Virus record (IMG/VR): IMGVR_UViG_3300032295_001731
Span: 1-40,903 of that record
DNA length: 40,903 bases
Origin: a virus
Taxonomy: Duplodnaviria > Caudoviricetes
Reading direction: 5' to 3' (one strand)
Below, one piece after another: positions 31,554-40,903 of the stretch. The stretch's first letter is position 1; every line of letters begins with the position of its first letter. The notes under the pieces are model-generated. The model searched no databases and was not told the origin of the DNA. It saw only the letters and a program-made list of their open reading frames with translations. A program made the position numbers and the translations under genes.

Positions 31554-31585
31554 TTTGGCGGATAGAAAAAAGGTTCGTAGGTTTG
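31554..31585 (+). promoter_or_regulatory. Complete Bacteroidota sigmaA promoter (TTTG-N20-TAGGTTTG)
   Basis: TTTG 31554-31557, TAGGTTTG 31578-31585. Confidence 0.75.
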
Positions 31586-31631
31586 TATTGAGATTAGCAA
31601 CTCAGCATAGTTTTAGAGATAAAAGGTTTTC

Positions 31632-31672
31632 AACCCCCTGTTCCCTGCTAATCTTACGGGGGGTTTCTTTTT
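31632..31672 (+). terminator. Terminator/attenuator hairpin in leader of plus-strand island
   Basis: AACCCCCTG / CGGGGGGTT stem with T-rich tail ending just before ATG 31676. Confidence 0.65.
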
Positions 31673-36060: not shown

Positions 36061-36074
36061 TGAATAATTGTTAT

Positions 36075-36155
36075 AAAAGAAATAAGGGGGCTATTATACC
36101 CCCTTACATCAAAACAAACAAAACAAAAAACAAGAGTACCTTAAACAACAAAGGT
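36075..36155 (-). ncRNA. Putative ~80-nt small RNA (sRNA-A)
   Basis: Own -7 box at 36160-36167, 5' hairpin ACCTT/AAGGT with TGTTGTTT loop, TTGTTT-rich linker, terminator TAAGGGGG/CCCCCTTA plus T-tail; no ORF. Confidence 0.55.
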
Positions 36156-36159
36156 CTTA

Positions 36160-38641: not shown

Positions 38642-38649
38642 TATCTTTA

Positions 38650-38748
38650 CTTAGTGTCATGTTGACACTTACTCAGACCTTAGTGTCATTTATACACTAA
38701 CCTTAGTGTCATGTTGACCTTTAGTACTTAGTGTCATTATTACACTAA
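38650..38748. repeat. Four copies of CTTAGTGTCAT, each the left arm of an imperfect palindrome
   Basis: Copies at 38650, 38679, 38702, 38727. Confidence 0.9.
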
Positions 38749-38877
38749 CTCATTTTATTTGCTTAGAATCTAGTCATTCCCCTGATTAATTCCTAATCAT
38801 TACCACTTTCATTTGTGCATACAAAAATAAATTGACTTTTGCAAGTTTTTACACAATTATTTTCAATTCAAAGCCTT

Positions 38878-38927: not shown

Positions 38928-38959
38928 CTTTGTCATATTATATAATATAGTTATATTTG
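38928..38959 (+). promoter_or_regulatory. Complete Bacteroidota sigmaA early promoter (TTTG-N20-TATATTTG)
   Basis: TTTG 38928-38931, TATATTTG 38952-38959, AT-rich upstream. Confidence 0.8.
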
Positions 38960-39190
38960 TATAGATAAAAAACACAACGTTATGAATACAAGTTAACACA
39001 TACAATACAGGATAGGCCGAAAGGCCACAACGAAAAAAAAATAATTCATTTTCGTACTGGGAAAAGAATGCTCATTCAGTACAGGTGGAATAACAGACCT
39101 CAAAAACGTTATAAAACTAGCTTAGGGAATTATTATGCCCGTTTCTTAAGTTAGATTATTAAAGGGCTATTTATTTTAATTTACCACACT

Positions 39191-39700
39191 ATGAAAACTT
39201 TATCTTTTAAATTCGAACAATTAAACACAATTAAGAAGCAAGGTATTGAAACCTTAGAAACAATTAGCTTCGAAACAAACGGAAACCTTTGTATAGATGC
39301 AAAGGCCGATAACTTGCAAAGAACAATAAATTTTTGTTCTGAGTTATTCAATTTGCTAGATGTAATGAAGCAAAGCGGAAAAGCCCTAGTTATTAATGGG
39401 TGCAAATTTCACCCTAATAAAGATTTCAATTTGTACGCTATTATTGACGGCAAAGAGCATTTTTTAGAATATTCTAGTATTATTCAATTCGATGCCGTAG
39501 CGTTCAAAGTTAGTGCACCAACATTGAGAACGAACAAAGACGGGCAAAACGTATTAAATACCAATTCAAGAAAGGCCTTTGCTTTGCAAGTATGGCAATT
39601 ATTACAGGGTGCGGAGGGCAAAACTCAATTAATGCATAAAACTAACTTATCGGCTATTGACGCAAAAGTGAACGCATCTAGTCAATTCTTACTAGCTTAA
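39191..39700 (+). CDS. Early hypothetical protein
   Basis: 169-aa ORF, first after the early promoter. Confidence 0.75.
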   Translation: MKTLSFKFEQLNTIKKQGIETLETISFETNGNLCIDAKADNLQRTINFCSELFNLLDVMKQSGKALVINGCKFHPNKDFNLYAIIDGKEHFLEYSSIIQFDAVAFKVSAPTLRTNKDGQNVLNTNSRKAFALQVWQLLQGAEGKTQLMHKTNLSAIDAKVNASSQFLLA

Positions 39701-39726
39701 TTAATTAACGTCTTAAAATTTGCGTC

Positions 39727-39963
39727 ATGAAATTATATTCAAAACAAGGTAACTATACAAGTACTTTAATTAGCGGGCTAGGTATTCAATCAAGTGAAGC
39801 AAAGATAGTACACAAACAAAAGCAAAGTACAAACGGGTCTAAGCGTTCACGAATGGAATCTAAAAAAGACGGTGTATTTAATAGCTTTACAAGTTTTGAG
39901 AAACGAGACGCAAACAATGAAGCAAGAAAAAAGAAATTCGAACTATTAAGACGCAAGAAATAA
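39727..39963 (+). CDS. Early basic hypothetical protein
   Basis: 78-aa ORF followed by terminator. Confidence 0.65.
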   Translation: MKLYSKQGNYTSTLISGLGIQSSEAKIVHKQKQSTNGSKRSRMESKKDGVFNSFTSFEKRDANNEARKKKFELLRRKK

Positions 39964-39981
39964 CCACTACAAACCTAAGCG

Positions 39982-40008
39982 AGGGGAGCAGAAATGTTCC
40001 CCTTTTTT
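39982..40008 (+). terminator. Rho-independent terminator
   Basis: AGGGGAGCA-GAAA-TGTTCCCCT plus T-run. Confidence 0.8.
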
Positions 40009-40081
40009 AGTAAGGCTCACTATCAACGCCAAAGGTTATTACGCCTTTCAATTTTAAAAATCTATTTAATTTACCACAATT

Positions 40082-40255
40082 ATGAAATTCATTTTCGCAC
40101 TTATGCTCACGTCATTAATCATGGCTGTGTCATTATTAATCTATTCAGTTATTCATAACACTAATATTGAAGCAACAATATTCAGTGCAATATTATGCGT
40201 TGCGTCAGCATCAGGTGCTGCGTATTCAGCAAAGATATTAGACGAAAGAAATTAA
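40082..40255 (+). CDS. 57-aa two-helix membrane protein (not in ORF track)
   Basis: MKFIFALMLTSLIMAVSLLIYSVIHNTNIEATIFSAILCVASASGAAYSAKILDERN; TTACCACAA leader motif. Confidence 0.7.
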   Translation: MKFIFALMLTSLIMAVSLLIYSVIHNTNIEATIFSAILCVASASGAAYSAKILDERN

Positions 40256-40279
40256 TTCACAATCAAAACCTACCACAAA

Positions 40280-40501
40280 ATGAGAGTACAAATTAACAAG
40301 GTTTGGAGCGCAGAAGAACTACGCCCGAGCAACAAGACAAATGTTTTCTTATGCAATCCTGGAGAAATCAAAGGACAATGGATAAGCATAAGCAAGTACG
40401 TAAAACTCAAGGAATTAGTACGCAAGTACACAAACATTCGTGAGGTATTATACGAAGATCAACAAGACTATACTATTCACTACTTAATTGAGAAGCCATG
40501 A
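40280..40501 (+). CDS. Early hypothetical protein
   Basis: 73-aa ORF with CTACCACAA leader. Confidence 0.7.
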   Translation: MRVQINKVWSAEELRPSNKTNVFLCNPGEIKGQWISISKYVKLKELVRKYTNIREVLYEDQQDYTIHYLIEKP

Positions 40502-40587
40502 CTTTAGGAGAACTCATATACCTATCATTAACGCTAAATGTAGTGTTATTCATCAAATACATTCAGTACAAACCAAAAAAGAAATAA
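40498..40587 (+). CDS. 29-aa single-helix membrane peptide (not in ORF track)
   Basis: MTLGELIYLSLTLNVVLFIKYIQYKPKKK; ATGA overlap. Confidence 0.55.
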   Translation: MTLGELIYLSLTLNVVLFIKYIQYKPKKK

Positions 40588-40589
40588 CA

Positions 40590-40647
40590 TTCTGTTGTGG
40601 TAGATAGAGAAGAAAGGCGTATCGTAATTGGTACGCCTATTTCTTTT
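40590..40647 (+). ncRNA. Putative 3'-UTR regulatory RNA (sRNA-B) ending in a terminator
   Basis: TCTGT/ATAGA stem with TGTGGTAG loop, then AGGCGTATC/GGTACGCCT terminator and T-tail. Confidence 0.45.
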
Positions 40648-40677
40648 ACCCAATATAACCTTTAAACAACAAGAACA

Positions 40678-40869
40678 ATGAAAACAGTAGTTATAAGTTT
40701 TAAAAAAATTTCAAATATGAGTGAAAAATTAGAACGTGCATTTTTCAATTGGTTAAGAGAAAATAACATCCCATATACAGCAAGTGATTTCATTTCCCAT
40801 AACATCTTTGTTGAAGAACGTGATGTATCCAAGATAAAAAAAATATGGCCTGAAATTATTAAACTTTAA
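40678..40869 (+). CDS. Early hypothetical protein
   Basis: 63-aa ORF with AAACAACAA leader. Confidence 0.65.
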   Translation: MKTVVISFKKISNMSEKLERAFFNWLRENNIPYTASDFISHNIFVEERDVSKIKKIWPEIIKL

Positions 40870-40872
40870 ACA

Positions 40873-40903
40873 ATGAAGAAGCTATTTAATTTTATTAAAA
40901 AAA
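40873..40903 (+). CDS. Start of next early gene, truncated
   Basis: TAAACAATG then MKKLFNFIKK to window end. Confidence 0.45.
   Translation, partial: MKKLFNFIKK

Follow-up and report, generated by a model that had tools for sequence, protein, structure and literature searches.

An invariant element ahead of a terminator is a candidate antisense RNA for the tagged leaders of its own early phage gene block

What reads the short tag that stands immediately upstream of several early genes in this phage? The DNA analysed here (the window) is a whole virus record of 40,903 nt and covers part of a phage genome, with relatives of up to about 65 kb; among the relatives used for comparison, G004 and G005 are 96% complete and G006 is a complete genome. 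A preliminary description had proposed an address code, in which each early gene group carries its own leader tag and is controlled by a cognate antisense RNA loop. As detailed below, this interpretation is partly supported.

The window encodes a terminase and a P22-like portal and shows a weak crAss ring match; the putative capsid and portal protein had no match among annotated phages. Structural genes occupy the minus strand, and the plus strand from 39191 carries small genes of no known family, which we call early on the basis of the genome layout; in a PHROG comparison, none of six early proteins found a match. SD-like words precede only 2 of the 41 called starts, and TAnnTTTG boxes, the -7 element of Bacteroidota (PMC6847099, available part), lie upstream of transcription units. 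From these two features, the host is probably a member of Bacteroidota and transcription would be performed by the host RNA polymerase. A tRNA search of the window found none, and the RNA-polymerase-like DxDxD motif was absent from the four large proteins examined. The search of bacterial genomes returned one match, a 10-kb contig (L229) of a Polynucleobacter MAG with the same phage block; because SD-like words occur at only 2-6% of starts and TAnnTTTG boxes stand before units, this contig is likely mis-binned. The window also contains a ferritin-like gene (PF00210; 8672-9139, minus strand) among the large virion-region genes and, between the divergent arms, four 28-nt repeats with internal GTGTCA..TGACAC palindromes (38648-38752), which are candidates for an origin or protein sites.

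The first early block (Table 1) is probably transcribed from the box at its left end. Three of its five genes carry a tag, located 1-2 nt upstream of the ATGs at 39191, 40082 and 40280. The tags, as well as the 9-nt complement TTGTGGTAG (40595-40603) before the terminator-like hairpin, were found exactly where the preliminary description had placed them, and the match exceeds chance. Also in agreement with it, TACCAC occurs at 3 of the 7 early-strand starts (binomial P ~1e-6, a post-hoc figure), and TACCACA is present in the window in 8 copies versus 4.3 expected (3 of 100 shuffles reached 8). The idea that an early gene group has its own tag holds for these three starts but not for the genes at 39727 and 40498, and in relatives TACC leaders are also found outside the upstream block. 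Past the terminator the leader motif does switch to AAACAA, as seen in two genes before the contig ends at 40903.

Table 1. Positions of the features discussed (window coordinates, except for RNA D)
Feature	Position	Strand	Remarks
-7 promoter box TAnnTTTG, Bacteroidota type	38952..38959	+	no later box of this kind on the + strand; consensus as in PMC6847099 (available part)
Leader tag 1, TTACCACAC	39181..39189	+	before 169-aa gene 39191-39700; 7 Watson-Crick pairs, 10 with G-U
Untagged 78-aa block gene	39727..39963	+	hybrid with element B -4.9 kcal/mol
Internal terminator-like hairpin with U-run	39981..40004	+	splits the block
Leader tag 2, TTACCACAA	40071..40079	+	before 57-aa hydrophobic gene 40082-40255; 8 Watson-Crick pairs, 12 with G-U
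Leader tag 3, CTACCACAA	40270..40278	+	before 73-aa gene 40280-40501; 9 Watson-Crick pairs
Untagged 29-aa last ORF of the block	40498..40587	+	stop codon 40585-40587 falls within the conserved stretch
Element B, invariant stretch	40580..40609	+	29/30 columns identical in 16 distinct sequences
Predicted seed, UUGUGGUAGAUAG	40595..40607	+	GUGGUA loop 40597-40602; weak, non-covarying hairpin 40591-40608
Intrinsic terminator-like hairpin (40615-40638) and U-tract	40615..40647	+	sequence differs among relatives, pairing kept
AAACAACAAGAACA-type leader, different tag class	40661..40677	+	first downstream gene 40678-40869
RNA A (sRNA-A of the preliminary description)	36073..36158	-	own -7 box 36167-36160, U/G-rich body, terminator
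RNA D loci in relatives	L016:733-828, L012:637-735; L019, L022, L156, L161, L213, L215, L216, L222	- (L016, L012)	

The 9-mer had been assigned to the loop of a small stem. Six of its nine nucleotides (GUGGUA) do form the loop, with an unpaired probability of at least 0.98 in the folding model of the terminated RNA, whereas the UU and the last G lie in the stem, which is weak and includes G-U pairs. No TAnnTTTG box was found within 130 nt upstream of the element in any of 18 loci, and none follows 38952 on the plus strand of the window; the element is thus without a host-type promoter and depends on read-through. From the promoter of the block it would be reached only by transcripts that pass the hairpin at 39981-40004, although a phage-specific promoter could still serve it. 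A 151-nt sequencing contig covers 40540-40675 across the terminator (depth 3; one run, 8 short contigs); that it represents RNA is a guess. Upstream, two hairpins precede gene 39191 (39055-39170, plus strand), of which the second has a GCCC loop that could pair with GGGC right before the tag as a pseudoknot, a feature kept in L001 and L169. In L002, L136 and L138, the long leader before the first early gene contains a tRNA T-arm-like sequence (GTTCGA..C).

Compared with the invariant stretch of element B, only 4 of 58 upstream coding columns and 1 of 42 downstream columns were invariant in the same ungapped alignment. When the nine middle bases were left free, a viral search returned the loop of the window in 11 of 11 matches. 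A metagenome search returned 29 matches: the 11 homologous ones all had the same loop, and the remaining 18, unrelated and with a different middle or without promoter or terminator, were dropped by context, judged by eye. The loop is identical in 22 of 22 homologous matches. Another 53 loci (L082-L134), obtained with 10 free bases, showed no match to the element and were excluded as homologues. To avoid anchoring on the element itself, we also searched with an alignment of the 73-aa protein, which yielded 11 loci (34-92% identity) from 215 candidate stretches, all located on the 11 contigs that the DNA search had returned.

The seven pairs of the small seed stem never vary among 12 aligned sequences and therefore say nothing in favour of structure, while the pairing of the terminator is kept through sequence change (3 of 23 pairs changed on two sides). 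Because the seed never varies, there is no two-sided covariation for B itself. The expectation that the loop would be conserved or co-vary with the leaders is thus borne out for conservation and not for covariation; with an invariant loop, support comes from one-sided covariation and from the contrasts between B and a second RNA and between clades. A conserved seed before a terminator is the profile described for 3'-UTR sRNAs (PMC9438474, available part), and as judged from the alignment, the conservation of element B is that of a sequence-read seed ahead of a terminator. The element is real and conserved, and it is very likely functional. In Rfam, the window, B and RNA D (see below) had no family match; the window gave one chance match (E 0.78), which was not C4.

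Does the element match the leaders of its own block in relatives as well? Of the 23 homologous loci, among them the window and duplicates, 22 have an upstream start preceded by a perfect complement of at least 8 nt that ends 0-5 nt before the AUG; the exception holds merely 24 nt of upstream DNA. The gene content of the block differs among relatives, and orthologous leaders slide between the registers TACCACAA, TATCTACCA and ATCTACCACA yet keep pairing. For instance, the leader of gene 1 reads TTTACCACACT in the window, ATCTACCACATT in L169, TATCTACCAAC in L176 and TATCTACCAAAATT in L139. At least 8 Watson-Crick pairs with B are formed by 17 of the 20 distinct block-1 leaders and, with G-U pairs, by all 20, counts that overstate independence because the leaders belong to about six gene families by our own grouping (five families reach 8 pairs). 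The corresponding chance rates, determined by inserting TACCA into untagged early leaders, are 7% and 32%.

In six genomes, matches of at least 8 nt were found at 9 of 119 early start clusters versus 1 of 85 late ones (p = 0.007 in composition-matched shuffles), and 9-nt matches at 7 versus 0 (p = 0.0008); 7-nt matches were weakly enriched (12 of 119 early clusters, p = 0.06). Of 34 TACCA contexts at starts, 21 extend to 8 nt or more, compared with 19 of 109 on the remainder of the early strand and 11 of the 139 late-strand occurrences. In G000-G005, TACCA leaders precede 22 of 216 early and 4 of 245 late starts. Per genome, B matches just 1-3 called early starts, and at 8 nt it reached no significance alone in G001, G004 and G005; starts that follow hammerhead-like RNAs are overlooked by the caller. 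When non-coding 20-mers were compared blindly with the 41 called starts of the window, the element ranked first, with matches to three starts, one of them outside the block. Blind scans of G003-G007 suffered from noise, as genes truncated at the borders of stretches resemble non-coding DNA.

The predicted hybrids have energies of -12.8, -14.5 and -13.9 kcal/mol at tags 1, 2 and 3, with target opening costs of 0.7, 0.9 and 1.5 kcal/mol, respectively; the four untagged leaders of the window pair at -3.6 to -10.1 kcal/mol. The duplex energy of the whole element did not separate early from late starts, and 2.6% of all window 23-mers score as high as the element, under a null that lacks composition matching and is dominated by U-rich words. 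Overall, the element resembles a functional antisense seed directed at the leaders of its own block.

Directly before early genes of L002, L005, L009 (two), L012 (two), L013, L016, L019, L022 and L229, we observed cores with closing stems that are presumably hammerhead-like, judging from the core motif; Rfam gave no match for these cores of relatives. They are absent from the window. The cores end about 15-20 nt upstream of start codons, and self-cleavage at this position would give the tagged leader a new 5' end.

A second unit, RNA D, surfaced in the blind scan of relatives. Besides a -7 box, this unit of about 97 nt has a 5' hairpin, a terminator and, between them, the invariant middle UAUAUCAUGGUAGAUAUA. 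D was found in 11 of 20 pattern matches, the other nine (with a different middle or without promoter or terminator) being dropped by eye; since the middle was fixed by the search pattern, its invariance is partly built in. In the seven loci holding both units, D lies 5.8-7.6 kb downstream of B; it is known from relatives and would lie past the end of the window at 40903. L216, which holds D, starts downstream of the expected position of B and so says nothing on B. The 5' loop of D is complementary to its terminator loop over 7-8 nt in 9 of 10 sequences, in five sequence versions.

D shares the UGGUAGAUA core with B, but its flank (CAU) matches TACC-AUG, and its middle is complementary to TATCTACC-AUG leaders. 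Block-1 leaders fit B better in 11 cases and D better in 4, with 5 ties. Downstream TACC-AUG leaders fit B better in none and D better in 17, with 8 ties, a preference that is partly automatic because the AUG is part of the match to D. The TACC-to-AUG spacing itself is what differs between the blocks. The contrast between B and D supports, at the level of complementarity, the matching of a second leader class by a second RNA in relatives.

A sister clade provides another contrast. L044, L045 and L077 show the same layout with AAACAAAGTAA and AAACAGT leaders. None of the 105 early starts of G006 and G007 matches B or D at 8 nt, TACCA occurs in only 2 of these 105 leaders, and neither B nor D was found in the complete G006 genome. 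G006 has a unit of its own, with -7 box and terminator, that carries ATTACTTTGTTTT. Its 9-nt matches fall at 9 of 50 early starts of G006 (p = 0.012) and 8 of 55 of G007 (p = 0.030), without significant enrichment in G000-G005 (lowest p = 0.052). These comparisons support a swap of both tag and anti-tag in the sister clade. The proposal that each group has its cognate loop thus gains from D and from the swap in G006; it does not extend to the second leader tag of G006, for which no complement was found outside leaders, or to the G007 unit at the same place, which matches only 1 of 55 early starts. On the reverse strand of L077 (G006), a stand-alone RNA unit at about 2830-2915 is complementary to the leader tag of the clade and also to the start of MKTV-type genes.

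Two RNA units were noted in the late region of the window. Among 80 loci, the hairpin of RNA A with loop UUGUUGUUU is confined to the window, L002 and L003, and the U/G-rich body of this RNA is more widespread. RNA A scored 11 matches of 30 in its own clade, G001 (p = 0.005), and its matches were not significant in G002, G003 and G005. RNA C (31590-31672, plus strand) is a promoter-terminator unit with a -7 box at 31578. Its 5' arm is complementary to its own terminator loop, and matching changes are seen in L012 and L022. The unit also contains AAGGTT, complementary to the AACCTT at the start of the AAACAACAAG leader class.

How would element B act? In our view, it is probably the seed of a small RNA that derives from the 3' UTR, has no promoter of its own and represses the translation of the block it comes from, in the manner of OppZ and CarZ, in a phage of Bacteroidota type. 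Direct observations behind this proposal are its position, invariance and complementarity, accessibility in folding models and the matching of tag class to RNA across relatives. Host RNA polymerase would start at the -7 box near 38955; some transcripts would read through the hairpin at 39981-40004 and end at 40647. A host nuclease would then cut close to the 29-aa ORF's stop codon, where the sequence presumably fits the preference of RNase E, and release a small RNA of about 60 nt made up of the seed hairpin and the predicted terminator. The GUGGUA loop would nucleate on ACCAC/UACCA, and the weak stem would open to give 8-12 pairs over approximately -12 to -1. Such pairing would cover the A-rich region used by SD-blind ribosomes of Bacteroidota; in Flavobacterium, an A-rich leader region tunes initiation, with positions -3, -6, -12 and -13 involved (PMC6847099, available part). 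Translation of the tagged block genes would be blocked, likely as negative feedback, and in relatives the independently promoted D would act likewise on later genes in which the tag directly adjoins the AUG.

With the 29-aa ORF attached, the seed is folded away in the model (opening 7.5 kcal/mol), which counts against the proposal in that processing would be needed. In 18 of 18 loci, the predicted cost of opening the seed is about 3-5.5 kcal/mol when the RNA is terminated, versus 7.7-11.1 kcal/mol in read-through RNA; TACC stands right behind the U-tract in 12 of the 18 loci and could keep the seed silent within long transcripts. The lack of a nearby promoter box, the TACC behind the U-tract and the sequestering folds would also fit pairing in cis, in which no small RNA is set free: the 3' end of the finished transcript would fold back onto leaders lying 300-1400 nt upstream, or the seed within read-through RNA would pair with the TACC just behind the terminator. 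We consider this rather unlikely. A single seed per transcript would not cover three leaders at once, translating ribosomes would stand between seed and leaders, and the sister RNA D, with its own -7 box and terminator in 11 loci, must act in trans.

A site on double-stranded DNA is quite improbable. In that case TATCTACCACAA, present once in inverted orientation before the terminator, would be bound by a phage or host protein or serve as a recombination signal, with RNA pairing incidental. Invariance without covariation fits such a site, and the start-associated repeats of mycobacteriophages include single inverted copies, with the mechanism left open in the available part of PMC3203893. However, sense copies lie 0-5 nt before the AUG and on the early strand only, both inverted copies sit in RNA-like units (in D, with the covarying loop-loop pairing described above), and the flank of each inverted copy fits its own leader class, AUG included.

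Nor is it at all probable that the RNA is real but mainly targets host mRNAs, or activates instead of represses, with the phage leaders secondary. For the majority of the trans-acting sRNAs described in phages, the targets are host genes (PMC12197685, available part), but here the complement is kept by phage leaders in all but one of the 23 loci, and the target leaders are open (0.7-1.5 kcal/mol), which leaves no inhibitory fold to relieve.

Very improbable, finally, is a Kozak-like start context spread by leader copying, with the element as a relic inverted copy or a chance match of a G/U-rich spacer to A/C-rich leaders: the reverse strand of the element does read like a leader followed by ATG and U-rich 23-mers match leaders easily, but a relic would drift, whereas this stretch is more conserved than the adjoining coding DNA, its antisense ATG gives a reading frame of only 14 codons in the window and has disappeared from L137 and L139 (so that an antisense ORF was rejected as well), the tag is rare at late starts, and composition-matched shuffles argue against chance.

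If a repressing small RNA is accepted, the wider arrangement could be a relay in which small RNAs, in place of a repressor protein, time the early programme. This extension is tentative and we hold it to be doubtful. B, cut from the 3' end of block 1, would shut that block, D would shut later TACC-AUG genes, and RNAs of the late region (A, perhaps C) would shut AAACAAC-tagged genes; the tags would be portable addresses that bring newly acquired genes under control, and tag and anti-tag would be rewritten together between clades.

Among titles and abstract starts of the open literature, we found no paper describing this RNA or arrangement, and the available part of preprint 10.64898/2026.09.22.753630 contains nothing on this RNA; the table of 38 undescribed phage sRNAs in PMC12197685 (available part) or large catalogues of predicted phage RNAs could hold the motif. 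Phage small RNAs in the literature are mostly either antisense to a single target that they overlap or directed at host genes (PMC12197685, available part). The proposed RNA, if true, would be a protein-free shut-off of early phage genes via a shared tag in a host group without SD pairing or Hfq. It would also offer a testable candidate for the reader of start-associated tags, which has been left open for the SAS of mycobacteriophages (PMC3203893, available part), and provide a 60-nt orthogonal translation switch for Bacteroidota.

Regulation by an RNA from the targets' own operon has phage precedents. The c4 and CI RNAs come from the operon of their targets and pair via short loop sequences with non-overlapping sites; c4 is a cloverleaf at the 5' end that RNase P processes, and its control of immunity runs via a single small gene (icd-ant operon). 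Element B resembles them as a same-operon phage RNA predicted to pair through short loop sequences. Unlike c4, it comprises two hairpins at the 3' end, and the C4 covariance model of Rfam found no match in the window or relatives. The c4 RNA of P1/P7 and the CI RNA of P4 are named as phage antisense RNAs in the available part of PMC8201110. A cis-encoded antisense RNA (sar, OOP, aQ) is ruled out, for element and targets are on the same strand and the perfect matches of 7-9 nt lie 317-1406 nt away.

The tags resemble the SAS of Cluster K mycobacteriophages in position only. SAS is a short asymmetric tag before the AUG of non-structural genes, whose reader, RNA or protein, is left open in the available part of PMC3203893; as here, the tag stands a few nucleotides before the AUG, in one orientation and at early genes (22/216 early versus 4/245 late starts). 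SAS has 13 bp with an SD core, whereas the tags here are A/C-rich and without SD, and for them a conserved antisense unit has been identified. In Bacteroides thetaiotaomicron, GibS represses an SD-less mRNA by pairing around the start codon, without known Hfq, and Bacteroides has no obvious Hfq (PMC7366714, available part). GibS shows by analogy that start-codon pairing would be chemically possible in Bacteroidota, but it is host-encoded and intergenic, with its own promoter, a 30-50-nt seed, metabolic targets and no shared tag.

The closest likeness is to OppZ and CarZ, autoregulatory 3'-UTR-derived sRNAs of Vibrio cholerae (PMC7398697, available part). As in those RNAs, the conserved stretch lies between the last stop codon (40585-40587) and an intrinsic terminator (40615-40638), is more conserved than the adjoining coding sequence (29/30 versus 4/58 invariant columns), is without its own promoter (no TAnnTTTG within 130 nt in 18/18 loci) and is complementary to initiation regions of its own operon (3/5 block genes; 22/23 loci). 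OppZ and CarZ exert negative feedback, and the same is proposed here. They are bacterial, depend on Hfq and RNase E and have one validated site each (PMC7398697, available part), whereas element B belongs to a phage, faces three tagged leaders of one block and would act in a host type without SD use or Hfq. With all four features that a sequence can reveal found at this locus, we provisionally assign element B to the autoregulatory 3'-UTR sRNAs of the OppZ/CarZ type.
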